From an uncultured Gammaproteobacteria bacterium (GTDB taxonomy: Bacteria; Patescibacteriota; Patescibacteriia; UBA1558; GWA2-36-10), in NCBI GenBank assembly GCA_964515785.1, contig CAZEWH010000002.1, positions 30,182-94,181 on the forward strand: DNA of 64,000 bases, given 5' to 3'. The notes under the pieces were generated by a model, which worked only from the letters and a program-made list of their open reading frames with translations, made no database searches and was not told where the DNA came from. Every line of letters begins with the position of its first letter. The first letter of the stretch is position 1. The translations under genes and the position numbers were made by a program. This document shows, in pieces, positions 1 through 61,389 of the stretch.

Positions 1-307
1 AGAAGTGGTCAAAGATGTTATCTGCATTCTTCGTGAAGATGAGTTGGATACTGGTGGTACAGCGTCTTATACTTGTCGTGATCTTATGCGAGCAGGCGCT
101 TACTTTGTAGAGTTGGTAGTAACTCACATGAAGTGTTCACCCACTTGGAAGCGCAAAATAGTTCGTAACAGTCCTTTTCATAGGATCTATGGTGGTGACA
201 CCATATATCGTGAGTACCAGGATCGAACTGGTGGTTTGGTAGTTGATATCAGTACTGATGTCATCATTGCCGAAAAATTGGCTGAGGTTCTTGATTCTCT
301 AGAATAA
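1..307 (+). CDS. C-terminal fragment of a hypothetical protein; the ORF is open to the window start (GTG at 5 is only the first in-frame start codon, codon 2-4 upstream is sense)
   Basis: Open frame from position 2 to TAA at 305-307. About 45% GC against ~30% for core genes. Followed by a hairpin terminator. Product not recognised. Confidence 0.35.
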   Translation, partial: EVVKDVICILREDELDTGGTASYTCRDLMRAGAYFVELVVTHMKCSPTWKRKIVRNSPFHRIYGGDTIYREYQDRTGGLVVDISTDVIIAEKLAEVLDSLE

Positions 308-312
308 AAAAC

Positions 313-343
313 ACCCGTCAAGATAAAACTTGACGGGTTTTTG
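313..343. terminator. Intrinsic terminator hairpin (acccgtcaag-ataaaa-cttgacgggt) with a flanking A-run and T-run; likely bidirectional
   Basis: Perfect 10-bp stem and 6-nt loop, then TTTTT on + and AAAAA upstream. Sits between convergent ORFs 1..307(+) and 347..970(-). Confidence 0.65.
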
Positions 344-346
344 ATT

Positions 347-970
347 TCAATGAACTCTGAAATCAAAAGGTACTGAGGTCGTGGTCTTGACCGGCTGATT
401 GCGTTGTTTACCAGGCTTGAACTTCCATTTCCAAGCAGCTCTGATGGCTTCATCAACCAGCGTTTGTGGAGCAGTAGTGCTCAAGACTTCGACACCAAAG
501 ACTTTGCCTCGTTCATCGACCATGATCAGGACCATGACCAATCCCTCCATGGCAGCTTCTCGAGCCATTTCAGGATAACGGGGTTTGGCCTTGTAGGTGA
601 CAACTGGTGCTTCATCAAAGGCATAAAAGGTTTTGGGACCTTCTAGCTTACCCATGTCTCTTGGCAGAGGCATGTCGTCCAGATTATCCCAGCTGGTGTC
701 TTCGATAGTTTCGTCGTCTGAAGCATCGTCAGAGACTATCATTTGGTATGGCACCTTGGGCATCTTGATTTCCTGCGGCATAGGCGGGATTTCAATGTCG
801 TCAGGAATATCGACCATTTCCATGGTTTCTTGTTCAAGATGATAGGGGGTTGGTCTAAATTCTGGAGTAAAGGTGAAGGCTGATGTTAGCAATAAGACTG
901 CCAACAGACCACAAAAGATCACAATTTTTCTGTAACCTTTTTTGATTTTCTGTTGCTTAGTCATAATCAT
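347..970 (-). CDS. TonB C-terminal domain protein (energy transducer TonB-like): N-terminal membrane anchor, Pro-rich acidic linker, TonB_C-like C-terminus
   Basis: N-terminal hydrophobic anchor (IVIFCGLLAVLLLTSAF). Pro/Glu/Asp-rich spacer (IPPMPQEIKMPKVP). C-terminus YPEMAREAAMEGLVMVLIMVDERGKV...FDFRV, typical of the TonB C-terminal fold. Higher GC than the core. Confidence 0.6.
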   Translation of the reverse strand: MIMTKQQKIKKGYRKIVIFCGLLAVLLLTSAFTFTPEFRPTPYHLEQETMEMVDIPDDIEIPPMPQEIKMPKVPYQMIVSDDASDDETIEDTSWDNLDDMPLPRDMGKLEGPKTFYAFDEAPVVTYKAKPRYPEMAREAAMEGLVMVLIMVDERGKVFGVEVLSTTAPQTLVDEAIRAAWKWKFKPGKQRNQPVKTTTSVPFDFRVH

Positions 971-1040
971 GACTAAACCTCCTTGTAAAGTACGTAGTTG
1001 TGGGACACTTTTAATATGACATTTTTAATATATTTTGTCA

Positions 1041-1087
1041 ACACGTAAAGCCACGTAAAAGTGTTACACACTCACGTGGCCACGTGT
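1041..1087. promoter_or_regulatory. Imperfect inverted repeat acacgtaaagccacgt ... acgtggccacgtgt (CACGTG-containing) upstream of the TonB-like gene; candidate operator
   Basis: Left arm 1041-1056 and right arm 1074-1087 are reverse complements except for a 2-4 nt internal difference. Lies just upstream of a TTGACA-like -35 (minus strand, ~1035-1040) for the gene starting at 970. Confidence 0.3.
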
Positions 1088-1097
1088 TTTAAATAAA

Positions 1098-1128
1098 TAA
1101 AAAACCGGGGCTGCATTGCAGCACCCGG
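1098..1128 (-). terminator. Intrinsic terminator for minus-strand ORF 1148..1459 (ccgggtgctgcaatgcagccccgg + T-run on minus)
   Basis: GC stem of about 11 bp with one bulge, followed on the minus strand by TTTTTTATTTATTT. Confidence 0.6.
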
Positions 1129-1147
1129 CTTGGGAGGGGTTGGAGGA

Positions 1148-1459
1148 TCAGAGCTGTCCTTGCTGACGATCATAGACCATGCAGGGGAAATCTCCGGGCA
1201 GGTCGATTTGCATGTCGATGCCGTTTGTCATCGTGACATGCATAGAGACATGAGTAGGATGGTCGAGCTGCCAGTCACAGAGACTGGCATATCGCAGCCA
1301 GATTTCCTCGTCATTGATATCACCAGATTCTGCCATAGCCACTTTGATGATCATGGATTTGTCAGGGTCCAGATCAAGCTCGGCCAGGGTGGTGATAGTG
1401 AAGAAACCGTCGTCTGTGTTCCTCTGAAGCATTTCGCGAGCCTGATTGTAGGGATACAT
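1148..1459 (-). CDS. Hypothetical protein (103 aa), acidic, no TM segment
   Basis: AGGAGA Shine-Dalgarno 6 nt upstream of the ATG (revcomp of 1462-1472). Its own terminator at 1098-1128. Higher GC. The overlapping + ORF 1130..1489 lacks these signals. Confidence 0.45.
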   Translation of the reverse strand: MYPYNQAREMLQRNTDDGFFTITTLAELDLDPDKSMIIKVAMAESGDINDEEIWLRYASLCDWQLDHPTHVSMHVTMTNGIDMQIDLPGDFPCMVYDRQQGQL

Positions 1460-1678
1460 ATCAGTTCTCCTGTAGTGAATGGTTTGTAGCCATGCACTTT
1501 CAGGAATATTCGTGAATCTTCAGAAGCGTACTTCTTGAAAGCGCATTTCAGTGTGAAATTGGGGTTTAGTTAGATAGTCGAAATTTCCAGCGCATTCTGA
1601 GCCTCCTTGTGGAGTAAAAAAGGGCAATGAATGAATTATTTAATAATAGCATATTTTAGCTATTTTGTCAAGGATAAG

Positions 1679-1707
1679 TTGTTTTTTAGTATTAATTCTG
1701 TTATAAT
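1679..1707 (+). promoter_or_regulatory. Candidate sigma70 promoter (TTGTTT-N17-TATAAT) for the S8 protease gene
   Basis: TATAAT at 1702-1707 and a -35-like hexamer 17 nt upstream, about 30 nt before the GTG start at 1736. Confidence 0.3.
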
Positions 1708-1735: not shown

Positions 1736-3757
1736 GTGTTATCTATAAAAAAGATAGCTTTATTTAGCATATTTTCTTTGCTAATAGCTAATATAGCGTA
1801 TGGTTTTTCTCAAGACTATACACCAGAAGATCCAAGTTTATATCATCAGACAGCTTATTTTGATTTGATGAATATAAAACCAAGCTGGTCCAATGATCAT
1901 CAAATAAATAAAGAAATAGTTATAGCTGTTTTAGACTCTGGTGTAGATTTAGATCATCCTGATTTGCTCAACAATCTCTGGAAAAATACTGGAGAAATAC
2001 CAGGCGATGGCATAGACAATGACGAAAATAGTTATATTGATGATATAGATGGCTGGGATTTTATGTCCAGTGACAATAGTCCTGAACCAGATTTGACAGA
2101 AGGATATGACAAAACTGCAGTCAATCATGGTACAGTAGTAGCTGGTATTATTGCAGCTACTGCCAATGATCAAGGTATTGTTGGTATTACTCCTCAAGCC
2201 AAAATAATGCCACTCAAAATTTTGGACGAAACAGGTAAAGGAAATACCTTGGTTTTATCTCAAGCAATTGACTATGCTGTAGAAAATGGTGCTGACATTA
2301 TAAATTTGAGTTTAGTAGGAGATACTTTTACTGAGCATTTAAATGAAGCTATTGCTAATGCTTATAATAATGGTGTGATGATTATTGCTGCTTCTGGTAA
2401 TGAAGATGAAGATGGATTAAATTTAGACATTGATCCGCGTTATCCTGTCTGTGATATAGAAGGTATAAATAGAGTTTTGGGAGTAGCAGCTGTAGATCAA
2501 GATCTAAAACTAACTGAATTTTCAAATTTTGGAAAAGAGTGTATTGATATATCTGCTCCTGGTACTGGTTTTTATTCAACAAATTTTCAAAAAGCTAGTA
2601 CTACAGATTTTCAAACTTATTATTCCAATGGTTGGAATGGTACTTCAGTCGCCGCACCAGTGATTTCTGCAACCGCTGCTCTTATCAAAATGAATTATCC
2701 TGAGCTACGACCTTTTGATATTTATAATATTTTGACAGACAGTACTAAAAGTTTGCAAGCTGCCAATCCTACTCATTATCTTGAGATGGGTACTGGTTTG
2801 ATAGATATTGGTGCAGCTTTAAACTTGGCAAATGATTATGCAAATCAAGCTATTAGGATAGTGGTGGCACCACAAAAGGATCTGGCTCCTGAGATTTTGG
2901 TCATGGATACCAAAGGAAATTTACAGAATTCTTGGCTAGCTTATAGTGAACATTTCAAAGGCGGCGTAAATGTAGCTATAGGTGATGTACATGGAGATGA
3001 TGCTCAAGAGGTTGTTACTGCTCCCAAAAAAGGCGGCGGACCACATATTAGAGTTTTTGATAGTAGGGGCAATATGATTTCAGAATTTTTTGCCTATATG
3101 GCTAGTTTTCATGGAGGAGTCAATATTGCTGTAGCTGATGTAAACAATGACGGTATAGACGAAATTATTACTGCTCCAGGGCCAGGCGGCGGACCACATA
3201 TAAAAGTTTTTGATAAATCTGGTAAAATGTTGACAGAATTTTTTGCTTATAGTGCTAGCTTTGATGGAGGAGTAAATGTAGCCACTGGTGATGTCAACAA
3301 TGACGGTGTTGATGAAATAGTTTTGGCACCTTATAGTAATTATAGCCCACATATAAAAGTTTTTAATAATAAACGTGAACTAAAAGGTAGTTTTATGGCT
3401 TTTGATAGATCTATGACTAGTGGTATAAATATTACTATTGGTGATGTCAACAATGATCAATGGCCAGAGATTGTAGCTACTCCACGTACAGGTCATGCTC
3501 CTGACATAAAATTATTTAGTCTCAAAGGTCGAGACAAAGGAGGATTTTTACCTTATAGTCAATATTTGACAAGTGGTATTGAAATTGTAGCTAGTGATAT
3601 TACTGGTGATGGACGACCAGAGATTATTGCTTTGCCAAACAAAGGCGGAGCTGCTCTACTAAAAGTTTATGATTATAATGGTTTAGAAAAAAATAGTCTT
3701 TATTTACGTAGTCCAGAAGACAAAAATGGTTACAATTTTGGTATCTTAGGTAAATAA
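1736..3757 (+). CDS. Secreted subtilisin-like serine protease (peptidase S8) fused to a C-terminal FG-GAP/beta-propeller repeat region
   Basis: GTG start. Signal peptide (IALFSIFSLLIANIAYG). Catalytic D (VLDSGVDLDHPDL), H (NHGTVVAGIIAA) and S (GTSVAAPVISATAAL) motifs. Six to seven repeats of GGVNVAxGDVNNDGxDEIVxAP...PHIKVFD typical of FG-GAP. Confidence 0.85.
   Translation: MLSIKKIALFSIFSLLIANIAYGFSQDYTPEDPSLYHQTAYFDLMNIKPSWSNDHQINKEIVIAVLDSGVDLDHPDLLNNLWKNTGEIPGDGIDNDENSYIDDIDGWDFMSSDNSPEPDLTEGYDKTAVNHGTVVAGIIAATANDQGIVGITPQAKIMPLKILDETGKGNTLVLSQAIDYAVENGADIINLSLVGDTFTEHLNEAIANAYNNGVMIIAASGNEDEDGLNLDIDPRYPVCDIEGINRVLGVAAVDQDLKLTEFSNFGKECIDISAPGTGFYSTNFQKASTTDFQTYYSNGWNGTSVAAPVISATAALIKMNYPELRPFDIYNILTDSTKSLQAANPTHYLEMGTGLIDIGAALNLANDYANQAIRIVVAPQKDLAPEILVMDTKGNLQNSWLAYSEHFKGGVNVAIGDVHGDDAQEVVTAPKKGGGPHIRVFDSRGNMISEFFAYMASFHGGVNIAVADVNNDGIDEIITAPGPGGGPHIKVFDKSGKMLTEFFAYSASFDGGVNVATGDVNNDGVDEIVLAPYSNYSPHIKVFNNKRELKGSFMAFDRSMTSGINITIGDVNNDQWPEIVATPRTGHAPDIKLFSLKGRDKGGFLPYSQYLTSGIEIVASDITGDGRPEIIALPNKGGAALLKVYDYNGLEKNSLYLRSPEDKNGYNFGILGK
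2918..3686 (+). repeat. Tandem coding repeats (~150 nt unit) of the FG-GAP propeller blades inside the S8 protease gene
   Basis: Near-identical DNA stretches, e.g. ggcggcggaccacatattagagtttttgat (about 3036) and ggcggcggaccacatataaaagtttttgat (about 3186). Protein blades 2 and 3 are >70% identical. Confidence 0.6.
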
Positions 3758-15949: not shown

Positions 15950-16723
15950 TCAAGAGCGCTGACGAGCAGGTACTAGCTTGAGTAGCTTGACCGAGATCAG
16001 CCAGTAGTTGAGTGCACCCCAGACAGCGCCAATAGTAGCGCCGAGTAGAGGATTGATCGTAAAGTAGCCGATAGCCGCACCAATGGCAGCGTCAATGCCG
16101 CAGAGCAGGCGCAGATCCGAGTGGATCAACTTGAAGAGTGTGACAGTGAACTTGACGGCAAACTTGACGAGCAAGATTGTGCCAAAGAAAATGCCACGTG
16201 GCAGTGAGTAGAAAAAGACGCGAAAAGGATTGCTGTATTTGATCATGGCTTTGAATAATTTGGTGGCGCTTTCATCAGCAGTAGCAAACAGACTACCAAA
16301 AAGTTGGCTAAACAATAAAATGATACATGCTATTGAAATAAGCATGGCTTTGAGTGACATAAACTGCGAGGTAGCTGAGACATCAAAGTCAGACATGATA
16401 TAGCCTAAACCGTATAGCCACATGCAGATTACGAGCATAAGCTGCACACCACGCAGGAAGCTACGCCATTCCTTGATCATGAACTTAAAGTACATAATCA
16501 AGCCACCGAGGCTGTATTTCCAGGTTTCGCGTCTGGCCGTGCGCCAGGCAGTCGGAATATTGCGGATGACCTCTGCAGGATCGTAGGCTAAATAGCCGGC
16601 CAATCCGCCAGCTAACAAGCCGATCCACCAGAAATTGGCAGTGAACTGCAGAGCCACCATAGCCCCGATAAAGGCGCCAGCAAAGACTGCTAGCATGACT
16701 TTAATTACGTTTCGTGTGTGCAC
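15950..16723 (-). CDS. Polytopic membrane protein (257 aa), hypothetical, in a compositionally distinct island
   Basis: GTG start preceded by an AAGGAGG SD. About 50% GC (against ~30% for neighbours). At least 6 hydrophobic helices. No recognisable family. Confidence 0.5.
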   Translation of the reverse strand: MHTRNVIKVMLAVFAGAFIGAMVALQFTANFWWIGLLAGGLAGYLAYDPAEVIRNIPTAWRTARRETWKYSLGGLIMYFKFMIKEWRSFLRGVQLMLVICMWLYGLGYIMSDFDVSATSQFMSLKAMLISIACIILLFSQLFGSLFATADESATKLFKAMIKYSNPFRVFFYSLPRGIFFGTILLVKFAVKFTVTLFKLIHSDLRLLCGIDAAIGAAIGYFTINPLLGATIGAVWGALNYWLISVKLLKLVPARQRS

Positions 16724-30544: not shown

Positions 30545-30868
30545 TTAGGTTGTTGTAGGGAAGGCGAAGACGCCGATTGTTTGGAAGAGCGCTTCGATGA
30601 TTTCAAAGGGAACTGGTTTCTTTTGACCACTTTCCCAGTCGGGGGTGTACAGCTCTTTGACCTCCAGGGTCACCTCATATGTCGGTAAGGCCGTTTCCTT
30701 GCCGTGGGGTTGCTTATTGGGGTTGCTTTTTGAACTGACGATCTTGATGATATAGCGTTGATGATTTTTTTCAGCAGACTCTGGTTCATGGTATAGATTC
30801 CAATTGCCTTGCAAAAAAACATGAAGATCGTTGAGTTGTGCGACCGAAAGACTGGTTTTTAGCAACAT
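30545..30868 (-). CDS. Hypothetical protein (107 aa from the ATG at 30868; the ORF track extends to a TTG at 30919), cargo of a direct-repeat-flanked mini-island
   Basis: Perfect AGGAGG SD 6 nt upstream of the ATG (MLLKTSLSVAQL...). About 45% GC. Own terminator. No recognisable family. Confidence 0.5.
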   Translation of the reverse strand: MLLKTSLSVAQLNDLHVFLQGNWNLYHEPESAEKNHQRYIIKIVSSKSNPNKQPHGKETALPTYEVTLEVKELYTPDWESGQKKPVPFEIIEALFQTIGVFAFPTTT

Positions 30869-30928
30869 GATTTTCCTCCTGATTACAGGCACCGCCTGCG
30901 GTTGTCTTGGCACCGCCAAGATCAGGTT

Positions 30929-39647: not shown

Positions 39648-39680
39648 AAAAAATCCCCCGACCAAGTTTCAGTCGAGGGG
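39648..39680 (-). terminator. Intrinsic terminator of the 141-aa gene (cccctcgac...gtcggggg + TTTTTTT on minus)
   Basis: GC stem with one bulge followed by a 7-nt T-run on the minus strand. Confidence 0.55.
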
Positions 39681-40094
39681 TTTGTATATTCTGCGTAGCC
39701 TAGATATTAGCGCTACGCTAGGAACTTTCTTAGATATTAATTCCCAGTCTTCTAGGGAACAATCACCCAAGTGAAGTAATTCACGAGCAGCTTGCTCGCG
39801 TAATTCTGGTACTAGGTCAATAATACATCTTAAATGTAATTTGATCGGGCAATCTTGTAGAAGAACTAGGGCTGCATCCTTGCGAAAATCTGGAACAGTT
39901 TCGATAATAGCACCGATTTGCCGAAAATTAGGTTTACGCAGCTTTTGATGATGATAGCGGCGCAAAAGCTCTTTGGCAGATTGGCGAGCATGAAATCTGT
40001 TTCCGTAGACCAATTTCTTGAGATAGAAATTGGAGTAAAAGTGGTGTAACCTCCAGTTTTGCCACCAGTCTCGAAGTTTTTCGAGTGTGTACAT
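39669..40094 (-). CDS. Hypothetical basic protein (141 aa)
   Basis: AGGGAG SD 7 nt upstream of the ATG. About 45% GC. No TM segment. Rich in R/H/L. No family recognised. Confidence 0.5.
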   Translation of the reverse strand: MYTLEKLRDWWQNWRLHHFYSNFYLKKLVYGNRFHARQSAKELLRRYHHQKLRKPNFRQIGAIIETVPDFRKDAALVLLQDCPIKLHLRCIIDLVPELREQAARELLHLGDCSLEDWELISKKVPSVALISRLRRIYKPLD

Positions 40095-42889: not shown

Positions 42890-44128
42890 ATGTTGGATAT
42901 AAATTTGATCCGTAATAATAAAAAAGAAATTACCAAAGCTTTATTGAAACGGGTCGACAAAAAAGATCTTGATCTTGATAAAATTATCAAGCTAGATGAT
43001 GAGCGTAAAAAAATATTGCAACAAGTAGAAGAATTAAAGTCTCAGCGCAATAAATCATCAAAAACAAAACCAGATGCCAAGACTATCAAAATGATGAAAA
43101 AACTTGGTGATGATATCAAAGATCTTGATACTAAATTATCAAAAATAGAGGATGATCTAAATACTCACTTATCTGCTTTACCAAATGTTCCAGCTGATGA
43201 TGTTGCAGCTGGTGGAAAAGAAAATAATAAAGTTATCAAGACTTTTGGATCAAAACCTGGTTTTGAGTTTAAACCTAAAGATCATGTTGAATTAGCGACT
43301 GATTTGGGCTTGATTGATTACAAACGAGGTGCCAAGATGTCAGGAGCTGGATTTTGGGTATACATAGGTGATGGAGCTTTGCTTGAATGGGCTTTATTAA
43401 ATTATTTTGTAGATTTTCATAAGCAAAATAATTATCAATTTATGATTCCGCCGTATTTGTTATCAGAAAAATCTGCTTATATCTCTGGGCATTTGCCAAA
43501 GTTTAGAGATGATCTTTATTGGACACAAGATAAGCTTTGTCTCAATGCTACTAGTGAAATGATGTTAGGCAATTATCATGTGGATGAAATTTTAAATGAT
43601 TTGCCCAAAAAGTATTTTGCTTTTTCTCCTTGCTTTCGTCGTGAAGCTGGAGCTTATCGCAAAGAAGAAAGAGGTATGATTCGTGGTCATCAATTTAATA
43701 AGATCGAAATGTTCCAGTTGACTACTCCTGACAAATCATGGGATGCTTTTGCAGAATTACAAGACAATACTGAAAAATTAGTAGAAGGCCTAGGCTTGCA
43801 TTATACTAGTGTGCAGCTTGCAGCTAAAGATGCTAGTGCTGCTATGGCCAAAACTATTGATATTGAAATCTGGCTACCAAGTATGAATACCTATAAAGAA
43901 GTATCTAGTGTATCCAATGCTTTGGATTATCAGGCTCGCCGAGGTAATATAAAATTCAAAGACGAGGATGGTCAAAATAAATTTGTTCATACACTCAATG
44001 CTTCTGGTCTAGCTACTAGCCGTGTTTTACCAGCTATTTTAGAACAATTTCAACAAGCTGATGGTTCTGTGATTATCCCTAAAGTTTTACAAAAGTACAT
44101 GGGGGGTCAAAAAATCTTAAAACCATAA
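42890..44128 (+). CDS. serS: Serine--tRNA ligase
   Basis: N-terminal coiled-coil arm and a class II core (FRREAGAYRKEERGMIRGHQFNKIE, GLATSRVL). Confidence 0.9.
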   Translation: MLDINLIRNNKKEITKALLKRVDKKDLDLDKIIKLDDERKKILQQVEELKSQRNKSSKTKPDAKTIKMMKKLGDDIKDLDTKLSKIEDDLNTHLSALPNVPADDVAAGGKENNKVIKTFGSKPGFEFKPKDHVELATDLGLIDYKRGAKMSGAGFWVYIGDGALLEWALLNYFVDFHKQNNYQFMIPPYLLSEKSAYISGHLPKFRDDLYWTQDKLCLNATSEMMLGNYHVDEILNDLPKKYFAFSPCFRREAGAYRKEERGMIRGHQFNKIEMFQLTTPDKSWDAFAELQDNTEKLVEGLGLHYTSVQLAAKDASAAMAKTIDIEIWLPSMNTYKEVSSVSNALDYQARRGNIKFKDEDGQNKFVHTLNASGLATSRVLPAILEQFQQADGSVIIPKVLQKYMGGQKILKP

Positions 44129-54263: not shown

Positions 54264-54707
54264 ATGGAGGGACCAGTAGTAGTTTTTTGGTTTTTGGTTG
54301 TCAGCGCTATTCTTTGGATAATTTTTGGCGATTTTATAAAATCGAACAAGAAATCCACTTCATCAGTCAAACAGAAGGAGGAGACTGTGAACAGTAATCA
54401 GTTACCGGTTGTGACACCGGACATTTTGCCAGCTCGTCGGTCTATTCTGGATTCGTATGGTTGGAATAATACGCCAACTGTGATATCATCTCCGGAACCA
54501 GAAGCAGTCTTAGCTAGTCATAATCCGCGTATAGCTCTTAAGGTTTTGAAAACTGCTCAGCAGGGTGAGTTTGCTCGCATTACTGCTCTGCAGATGGCTG
54601 GTGTAGCTAGTCAGGCCTTGCTCGTCAATCCACAGGTTCGTGAGATTGAGTTCAATCTCAAAGTTAGTGGTGGCTTTAAAGCCAAGGGCAAGGTGAGGTT
54701 ACGGTGA
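54264..54707 (+). CDS. Hypothetical protein (147 aa) with an N-terminal TM anchor
   Basis: AAAGGAG SD; N-terminal hydrophobic helix (VVFWFLVVSAILWIIFG). About 44% GC. No family recognised. Confidence 0.45.
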   Translation: MEGPVVVFWFLVVSAILWIIFGDFIKSNKKSTSSVKQKEETVNSNQLPVVTPDILPARRSILDSYGWNNTPTVISSPEPEAVLASHNPRIALKVLKTAQQGEFARITALQMAGVASQALLVNPQVREIEFNLKVSGGFKAKGKVRLR

Positions 54708-60726: not shown

Positions 60727-61389
60727 TTATATAGGGAGTGCTTCTATTACTAGTCGCTGATCAGTAGTATAGACAGGGTGACAGGTAAATAAAGTCAATT
60801 TTTCTTGGCCAGTGTCTTGTAAAATACTAATTTCATCAGGCTCGACAATTCGGATATTGTTTACTTGATATTTATATTCTTGATCTTGCCAAAATACTTG
60901 GATAATGTCCCCTGTTTGGACTTTATCTAGATTGAAAAAAGTATTTGGTCCAGAAGTATAAAGATAGCGATGACCACTAAGTACCATATTTTTGTAGCCA
61001 TCCGGATTATCTGGAGTACCAGAGCCAGGGATGTGCCAAGCACCTTGTAGTAAAGCATTTTTTTCATTATCACCAAAAACTATAGCCATATCAACACCGA
61101 TAGATGAAATAACAACACGATATTGATCTTGGTTAATATTTTCAACTTGATTTTCTTCTTCTGTTTGTTCCTTTACTATTTGTTCTTCTTGATTTTCTTT
61201 GTCTTGAGACAAATCACTTGGCATGTTGTCTGGATTTTTTTGTGAAGTTTCATAATCAATATTAAGACCGGTAGTAGTAGATAATACATCTTGATGGCTA
61301 GTTGTTTGAGTTTGCCAAATAAAAAATAAAGCCACTAGTCCCAAGACTATTAGTAGATAACTTGTTATTTTGGCATTTTTATAAGACAT
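60727..61389 (-). CDS. Sortase-family cysteine transpeptidase
   Basis: N-terminal anchor; catalytic His (VLSGHRY), TLFTCHP cysteine motif, downstream Arg. Confidence 0.75.
   Translation of the reverse strand: MSYKNAKITSYLLIVLGLVALFFIWQTQTTSHQDVLSTTTGLNIDYETSQKNPDNMPSDLSQDKENQEEQIVKEQTEEENQVENINQDQYRVVISSIGVDMAIVFGDNEKNALLQGAWHIPGSGTPDNPDGYKNMVLSGHRYLYTSGPNTFFNLDKVQTGDIIQVFWQDQEYKYQVNNIRIVEPDEISILQDTGQEKLTLFTCHPVYTTDQRLVIEALPI

Follow-up and report, generated by a model that had tools for sequence, protein, structure and literature searches.

An orphan tonB gene of Krumholzibacteriota-type origin in a monoderm-like Patescibacteria genome

The tonB gene, its product and its host

The window analysed here is a 64-kb stretch (64,000 nucleotides) of contig CAZEWH010000002.1, and the subject of this work is a gene near its start that encodes a TonB protein of 207 amino acids (aa). 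In diderm bacteria, TonB usually energises transport through the outer membrane. In the window, tonB lies between a prs-like gene and a small open reading frame (ORF), ORF103. The gene, the segments of its product and the signals around it are as follows:

347..970, minus strand: orphan tonB, 207 aa (Pfam and NCBIfam matches, AlphaFold2 model with Foldseek, 22 protein clusters)
869..958, minus strand: N-terminal membrane-anchor helix, residues 5-34, preceded by a basic cytoplasmic N-terminus (AlphaFold2 model)
614..868, minus strand: disordered acidic tether, residues ~35-119, with a short Pro-rich stretch IPPMPQEIKMPKVP (pLDDT 50-67, no secondary structure)
350..613, minus strand: TonB C-terminal domain, residues ~120-207 (pLDDT >90, beta-alpha-beta-beta-alpha-beta)
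978..984, minus strand: tonB Shine-Dalgarno sequence AAGGAGG, 7 nt ahead of the ATG (read from the sequence)
1013..1041, minus strand: tonB promoter, TTGACA (1041-1036), 17-nt spacer, TG-extended CATATT (1018-1013)
1042..1087: ACGTG repeat block, ACGTGGCTTTACGTG, spacer and perfect palindrome CACGTGGCCACGTG (lineage-specific)
313..338: bidirectional intrinsic terminator between the prs-like gene and tonB, ACCCGTCAAG-loop-CTTGACGGGT, with A/T runs on both sides

The protein passes the Pfam TonB_C model (PF03544) with 68.2 bits (cut-off 24.6) and TIGR01352 with 51.3 bits (cut-off 27.1). In an AlphaFold2 model based on an input of 22 homologues, pLDDT exceeds 90 over residues 120-204, and the top 16 Foldseek matches of this C-terminal domain (CTD) are TonB or TonB-homologue (FusB) CTDs in 16/16 cases. 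The best of them is the CTD of Pseudomonas aeruginosa TonB (6i97_D), with a target-normalised TM-score of 0.86 and an rmsd of 1.9 Å. The CTD opens with a YP motif (Y132-P133), which is among the 49 invariant columns of the whole 22-sequence alignment. Profile, model and structural matches thus bear out an earlier sequence-only reading of the window, which had recognised a TonB-like protein with a membrane anchor, a spacer and a TonB_C domain. The protein has the anchor, Pro-containing spacer and CTD architecture of the TonB family, in a predicted topology with the helix anchored in the membrane and the CTD outside the cell. With the TonB proteins of Escherichia coli and P. aeruginosa (PDB 1u07, 2gsk, 6i97) it shares the CTD fold (target-normalised TM-score 0.78-0.86) and the N-terminal anchor, spacer and CTD architecture. 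It differs from them in that CTD identity is only ~26%, the Pro-rich stretch is much shorter, the helix has no His (no SHLS-type motif), and neither ExbB/ExbD nor a transporter is found in its genomic context. The same small fold serves as a tethered protein-binding domain in TolA domain III and in the ferredoxin-binding FusB (Foldseek 7zc8, 9hi3, 2x9a). Those proteins, however, still use a stator in diderm envelopes, and the protein described here is TonB proper by sequence.

The seryl-tRNA synthetase encoded in the window (42890-44128) has its best named matches, at 70-75% identity, in Patescibacteria, alongside a few records labelled merely 'bacterium'; its relatives include Parcubacteria, Magasanikbacteria, Komeilibacteria and Falkowbacteria. 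The window also contains ribosomal protein genes, rpoA, aminoacyl-tRNA synthetase genes, a dcw/Mur cluster and many glycosyltransferase genes, and no outer-membrane genes were seen in it. A sortase gene is present:

60727..61389, minus strand: sortase

A 698-aa protein encoded beside the sortase ends with LPATG, a hydrophobic segment and a basic tail. These genes place the host as a monoderm-like bacterium of the Patescibacteria, or Candidate Phyla Radiation (CPR), in agreement with the monoderm-like genome proposed earlier. Its cell would have a single membrane and a wall decorated via sortase. The G+C content of positions 1-1700 is 0.438 (0.446 for 1-1640) versus 0.330 across the remaining window, close to the 45% first reported for this part. 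The difference corresponds to z=4.2, and all other 1.7-kb segments are at or below 0.399.

The abrupt change in G+C content near position 1650 could be taken as the mark of an assembly chimera or of binning contamination, with a diderm fragment joined to a CPR contig. The exact TonB protein, however, was found on at least 10 contigs (ENA, Logan and JGI) from different samples with identical neighbours on both sides, and the order tonB, ORF103, subtilase and GT2 is common to 10 contigs from three assembly sources. A sister lineage, represented by contigs L017 to L019 of 26 to 269 kb (L017 being the 269-kb contig), is syntenic, with the order EamA, GH-like, HIT, prs-like, tonB, small cassettes, subtilase, GT2 and epimerase. 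Furthermore, tonB has promoter and terminator signals of CPR type, and native low-GC genes return upstream of the prs-like gene. Independent assemblies and sister-lineage synteny therefore exclude the chimeric join near 1.5-1.7 kb that had been considered at the outset, and an artefact of either kind is very improbable.

The expression signals of tonB fit its host. The form TTGACAAAA is a common promoter form of this genome (14 found, 2.7 expected), and 25 nt spanning the -10 and the start region (AAAAATGTCATATTAAAAGTGTCCC) are identical in L017. The sister-lineage -35 is TTTACA, with unchanged spacing. The native-type promoter, the strong Shine-Dalgarno sequence and the terminators on both sides suggest that tonB is a self-contained transcription unit. 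In the sister lineage, and only there, two direct copies of about 42 bp of the terminator hairpin bracket the tonB cassette (L017 9889-9910 and 10632-10653), and they may be the trace of a cassette insertion or exchange. The hairpin repeats extend over L017 9880-9916 and 10623-10660 and over 308-345 of the window. The window lineage retains the prs-side copy alone, in inverted form (loop flipped) and with compensatory changes in the stem. An Rfam scan gave no match at gathering thresholds; the candidate 'sok' at 1020-1126 on the minus strand, with 26.8 bits against 59, was dismissed as sub-threshold.

Upstream of the gene, the imperfect inverted repeat first noticed beside the TTGACA -35 is present, with its arms ACACGTAAAGCCACGT at 1041-1056 and ACGTGGCCACGTGT at 1074-1087. 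The block contains four ACGT cores (1043, 1053, 1074 and 1082) and a perfect 14-bp palindrome, CACGTGGCCACGTG, at 1073-1086. The pattern ACGTG-N(1-12)-ACGTG has three matches in the window versus 0.06 expected, and 3/3 fall within the block; the search for further copies of the palindrome by this paired scan found no second site elsewhere in the 64 kb. The block lies at about -36 to -81, where it abuts the -35 (1036-1041) and is wholly upstream of it, between the -35 and the ORF103 terminator. It is present in every window-lineage contig and absent from L017 and L018. These retain the core promoter, and in place of the block they have a different small cassette and the second copy of the hairpin. 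Given its position upstream of the -35, its absence from the sister lineage and its uniqueness in the window, the repressor operator suggested earlier is unsupported. It may serve as an upstream element or be bound by an activator, or it may be the scar of a deletion. A 22-nt inverted repeat (992-1013/1056-1077, 77% complementary, core ACACTTTTA/TAAAAGTGT) also brackets the tonB core promoter and is not clearly above chance; the sister lineage shows partial conservation of its downstream arm and none of its upstream arm.

Origin of the gene

Relatives of the protein were found in 22 protein clusters only, all of 206-210 aa and with 53-68% identity. A scan of one genome per species yielded 57 loci, which were then searched with donor operon proteins. 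Around 45 of these loci are not CPR (G+C content 0.48-0.70) and have the gene order ExbB-ExbD-ExbD-TonB-OEP, usually with a TonB-dependent receptor gene upstream; the labels Krumholzibacteriota, Krumholzibacteria and Krumholzibacteriia are frequent among them. At the CPR loci, tonB has no operon partners. In a bootstrapped, distance-based neighbour-joining tree, the two CPR TonBs are sister to each other (100% bootstrap), and the pair sits within a 22-member Krumholzibacteriota-type clade (clade bootstrap 100%), where its nesting above P0020/P0021 has 60% bootstrap support. The G+C content of third codon positions (GC3) is 0.47 in tonB, 0.16-0.28 in native genes of the window (median 0.22) and 0.61-0.91 in donor-clade tonB genes. 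Because the gene is nested in the Krumholzibacteriota clade and its GC3 departs from native values, we conclude that tonB was horizontally acquired from a Krumholzibacteriota-type diderm.

The comparison with the operon-encoded TonB of Krumholzibacteriota (GCA_030748535.1, JASMLU010000001.1; P0020, P0006) shows 206-210 aa proteins of 53-62% full-length identity, with the same domain order and YP motif and with the CPR proteins nested in the clade. In contrast to that TonB, the CPR gene is alone, with its own promoter and in a single-membrane genome, and its product has an accelerated N-terminus and tether and three shared substitutions at otherwise invariant CTD sites. In the donor group, an ExbB-ExbD-ExbD-TonB motor unit ends with tonB, with a receptor gene upstream and an OEP gene after it. 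The common ancestor of the window lineage and the sister lineage would have acquired tonB by itself. Concerning the route of transfer, IMG/VR gave no phage relative, the window has no tRNA gene, and there is no integrase within 10 kb of tonB. A member of the donor clade with a normal operon, P0006, was recovered from the sample series that also yielded the CPR contigs (SUTE22-1 ENA set, neighbouring JGI/SRA accession numbers), so that the co-occurrence of donor clade and CPR holds at the level of the sample series only. One locus labelled Patescibacteria group bacterium (L046, DATKWS010000191.1) was set aside; it has a complete ExbB-ExbD-ExbD-TonB-OEP operon and a G+C content of 0.58, and is therefore most likely a mislabelled or mis-binned Krumholzibacteriota-type contig.

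The sequence-only reading had considered a horizontally acquired diderm block, perhaps the edge of a larger island continuing before position 1. Clade nesting and GC3 support the acquisition for tonB itself. They do not extend to a block, since ORF103 has credible homologues in this CPR group only and a flank-like rate of synonymous substitution, and co-transfer of ORF103 as diderm cargo is rejected. Nor is there a larger island. On locus L002, which covers the DNA before the window start, the GC-rich patch runs for ~1.1 kb through the prs-like gene and then falls back to ~0.3. The upstream genes there are prs-like, HIT, GH-like and EamA, and native low-GC genes resume beyond prs-like. The part of the prs-like gene that lies in the window is:

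2..307, plus strand: 3' end of the prs-like gene, last 101 codons (divergent ribose-phosphate diphosphokinase-like)

In full, this gene encodes 353 aa (L002 5460-6521, minus strand). The protein reaches 94.7 bits with TIGR01251, under the cut-off of 113, and the N-terminal domain alone is recognised among precomputed Pfam matches. With a GC3 of 0.41 (native median 0.22), 92% identity to the sister-lineage copy and a flank-like number of synonymous substitutions per synonymous site (dS) of 0.41, it may be an older transfer or a native gene.

Selection and probable function of the orphan TonB

Homologues of ExbB, ExbD, the TonB-dependent receptor and OEP were searched with phmmer, using the donor proteins, in the 64-kb window, the 4 kb upstream and the loci L001-L019, L017 among them, and none was found; the ExbB/ExbD or receptor genes that might have been expected upstream of the window are thus not there. 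ExbB and ExbD are also missing from the precomputed Pfam tables. Among the top 80 metagenome loci no donor-like orphan ExbB occurs in a low-GC context, and the low-GC ExbB loci long enough to show their neighbours are all native ExbB-ExbD(-TonB) operons of low-GC diderms. A survey of thousands of genomes reported the TonB, ExbB and ExbD families as missing in CPR, and CPR as lacking an outer membrane (PMC6744442). Since neither an ExbB/ExbD stator nor a TonB-dependent transporter was found in the examined DNA and CPR is reported without them, the protein most likely does not transduce the proton-motive force. The reading that we consider probable is that of a domesticated orphan TonB that acts independently of ExbBD: tethered to the membrane, its TonB domain would be exposed on the outside of the cell and serve as a binding module. 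Of the outcomes foreseen by the sequence-only reading, a repurposed TonB-fold protein is thus the most likely one: the gene stands alone without ExbB, ExbD or receptor, its CTD is conserved and its N-terminus is relaxed. The data show where the gene came from, that it is an orphan in the DNA examined, which expression signals it has and how selection differs between its domains; from these we infer the membrane topology, the ExbBD independence and the binding function. The N-terminal helix would anchor the protein in the cytoplasmic membrane, and the flexible acidic tether of ~85 residues would hold the conserved CTD outside the cell. There the CTD would capture a beta-strand or a 'TonB-box'-like segment of a partner, or bind peptidoglycan, with the partner belonging to the cell's own envelope or to a partner organism.

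Selection since the transfer was assessed with Nei-Gojobori estimates for one pair, the window lineage versus the sister lineage, with dN for the number of nonsynonymous substitutions per nonsynonymous site and ω for the ratio dN/dS:

Eight flanking genes: 87-96% aa identity, dS 0.32-0.66, dN 0.02-0.07
tonB, whole: 68% aa identity, dS 1.22, dN 0.22, ω 0.18
tonB, CTD (111-207): 87% aa identity, dS 0.91, ω 0.085
tonB, tether (36-110): 56% aa identity, dS 1.20, ω 0.27
tonB, N-terminus and helix (1-35): 40% aa identity, dS saturated, dN 0.50

The tonB ORF is intact in both CPR lineages, and the estimates indicate that the CTD is under strong purifying selection and that the gene is clearly maintained. 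Along tonB, nucleotide identity is 75-92% in the 3' third and 42-68% in the 5' half; in the adjacent prs-like gene it is 80-95%. For comparison, 34 donor pairs with a CTD identity of 0.80-0.92 were used. Identity of the cytoplasmic N-terminus is 0.43 in the CPR pair versus a mean of 0.83 (minimum 0.71) in the donor pairs, and that of the tether is 0.56 versus a mean of 0.78 (minimum 0.65). Distances to a within-clade outgroup give the same picture. For the CTD they are 0.38 in CPR and 0.35±0.03 in the donor ingroup, which is no acceleration. The N-terminus is accelerated (0.60-0.61 versus 0.46±0.06), and so is the tether (0.41-0.49 versus 0.33±0.05), although the tether value is clearly outside the donor ingroup range for the window copy only. 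Acceleration of N-terminus and tether is expected after the loss of ExbB/ExbD coupling. Together with the conserved CTD, it is the pattern expected if the motor-facing end lost its partner and the binding domain kept one. Three CTD changes, E140A/G, R183K and I198T, are common to both CPR copies at sites that are invariant in the donor clade.

Several observations weigh against a domesticated binding module. The cytoplasmic residues Q6, Q7, K10 and Y13, which are invariant in the family, are kept in both CPR copies in a segment that is otherwise 57% diverged, and the N-terminus could therefore still have a partner. A stator could possibly be encoded elsewhere in the genome, beyond the DNA examined, and no candidate binding partner for the CTD was identified. 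The dS of tonB, 1.22 against 0.32-0.66 in the flanks, is not explained by simple vertical descent. This excess does not come from G+C content alone, because ORF103 has a GC3 of 0.61 and a dS of only 0.54-0.61; the 5' part of tonB may have been exchanged with a more distant CPR allele.

The retained residues also favour a working energy transducer, in which an ExbB/ExbD-, TolQ/R- or MotA/B-type stator encoded elsewhere would couple the proton-motive force to a process at the wall or surface layer. Two further points agree with this alternative, namely a CTD constraint equal to that of donor Ton systems and the complete Ton systems reported in monoderm Clostridia (PMC12204202). Nevertheless, it is unlikely. 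The 64 kb, its flanks and the sister locus yielded no stator gene, no donor-like orphan ExbB occurs in a low-GC context, and the ExbB and ExbD families are missing from the CPR survey (PMC6744442). Besides, no donor pair of comparable CTD identity comes near the divergence seen in the cytoplasmic N-terminus and tether, and the transmembrane helix is just 40% identical between the two CPR copies.

In E. coli TonB, stator coupling involves the helix residues S16/H20. The CPR helix has no His, and the donor-clade helices likewise have none, so that the motif is not diagnostic in this clade.

It is also conceivable that tonB is a non-functional passenger, a piece of foreign DNA taken up by a DNA-scavenging CPR cell and not yet lost. 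The genome has several other GC-rich single-gene inserts, the 42-bp direct repeats around the sister-lineage tonB would permit easy loss, and incomplete Ton systems of monoderms have been termed 'likely non-functional' (PMC12204202). The selection data, however, fit this explanation poorly. The ORF is intact in two lineages whose flanks have a dS of about 0.5, the CTD has an ω of 0.085 without any rate acceleration, and the gene has a conserved, native-type core promoter, a strong Shine-Dalgarno sequence and terminators. We therefore regard a passenger as improbable.

A further alternative is a host-directed factor. According to this proposal, Krumholzibacteriota would be the physical host of an episymbiont whose tethered TonB domain engages envelope proteins of that host. 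The donor clade and the CPR lineage share a sample series, the CTD is under donor-level constraint though this CPR bacterium has no known TonB-box proteins, and the three shared CTD changes suggest retuning. On the other hand, TonB boxes face the host periplasm and would be out of reach from outside unless the outer membrane were breached, no link to this donor could be established for the remaining GC-rich inserts, and the co-occurrence does not go beyond the sample series. A host-directed role thus has a small probability. Slightly less probable still is its strong form, in which a marine CPR episymbiont lives on Krumholzibacteriota, took the TonB of its host and seizes host TonB-box segments to dock or to open nutrient gates. 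If the protein were such a host-interaction device, the transfer would be a molecular marker of an otherwise unknown pairing of CPR and host.

The domesticated binding module can be set beside the incomplete Ton systems that occur occasionally in monoderm Actinobacteria, Bacilli, Caldiserica and Dormibacteria, where they were described as having no known origin and probably no function (PMC12204202). Both cases have a Ton component without the remaining machinery in a cell that lacks an outer membrane. The CPR case differs in having a named source clade and purifying selection with domain-specific relaxation, and in a host group reported without TonB, ExbB and ExbD (PMC6744442). Three features set this case apart: the donor clade can be named, native expression signals have been fitted to the gene, and selection is split along the protein. 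Such a split is the signature expected of a force transducer turned into a passive tethered binding domain. The case also offers a concrete, testable clue to the organism with which this uncultured marine CPR lineage is ecologically associated.

ORF103, the cassette array and other GC-rich genes

A short cassette array separates the subtilase gene from tonB. Each of its cassettes consists of one gene that is transcribed independently, and their number is four in the sister lineage and two in the window lineage. In the window, the cassette next to tonB is that of ORF103:

1148..1459, minus strand: ORF103, acidic 103-aa ORFan, GC3 0.61
1099..1128, minus strand: ORF103 intrinsic terminator, 11-bp bulged stem followed by a T run (conserved at L018 1391-1430)
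1643..1671, minus strand: ORF103 promoter, TTGACA, 17 nt, TG-extended TATTAT (conserved in L018)
1566..1595, minus strand: leader mini-ORF MRWKFRLSN with a strong Shine-Dalgarno sequence, in the ~180-nt ORF103 5' leader

ORF103 has no Pfam, NCBIfam or PADLOC match, and a search of 1.84 billion representatives returned its own cluster as the sole credible match, the three weak matches being long multi-stretch proteins. Its AlphaFold2 model (pLDDT 59) was too poor for a fold search. With 92% identity to the L018 homologue, an ω of 0.06-0.08 and a dS of 0.54-0.61, the same as in the flanks, it is a real gene, an ORFan confined to this CPR group. The leader mini-ORF has a counterpart in the sister lineage (MRWRFK, L018 843-863, plus strand) and may encode a regulatory leader peptide. 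The sister-lineage version of ORF103 has 135 aa; in the window copy, an in-frame deletion (1148-1165 on the minus strand, compared with L018 1267-1383 on the plus strand) removes a basic C-terminal tail of 33 residues (…LALKLGVTKRQASKMRR…), which the sister version retains.

Adjoining the array, the gene at 1736-3757 (plus strand) has as its product a secreted-type subtilase of 673 aa with fused FG-GAP/beta-propeller repeats and 90% identity in the sister lineage. This protein is a candidate for a protease of the cell surface or of host interaction. In the sister lineage, an OLD-family (AAA_15 + TOPRIM) nuclease gene and a type IV pilin-like gene lie a few kb from tonB (L017 14724-16055 and 16058-16615, both on the minus strand).

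Beyond the array, the genome seems to be peppered with single-gene GC-rich inserts. Four further small GC-rich genes without a family match are present in the window, at 15950-16723 (minus strand), 30545-30919 (minus), 39669-40094 (minus) and 54264-54707 (plus), with GC3 values of 0.57, 0.54, 0.38 and 0.41, respectively (native 0.16-0.28). Each forms a unit of its own, with TTGACA in its promoter and a hairpin as terminator, and three of them lie on the strand opposite to their neighbours. Donor tracing of these inserts by tblastn against all fetched loci returned self matches only. The GC-rich ORF of 257 aa contains a 10-bp palindrome, GCCACGTGGC, at 16193-16202, which is akin to the motif upstream of tonB and is probably due to chance. 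The 257-aa product is predicted to cross the membrane several times and has a Gly-zipper-like end.

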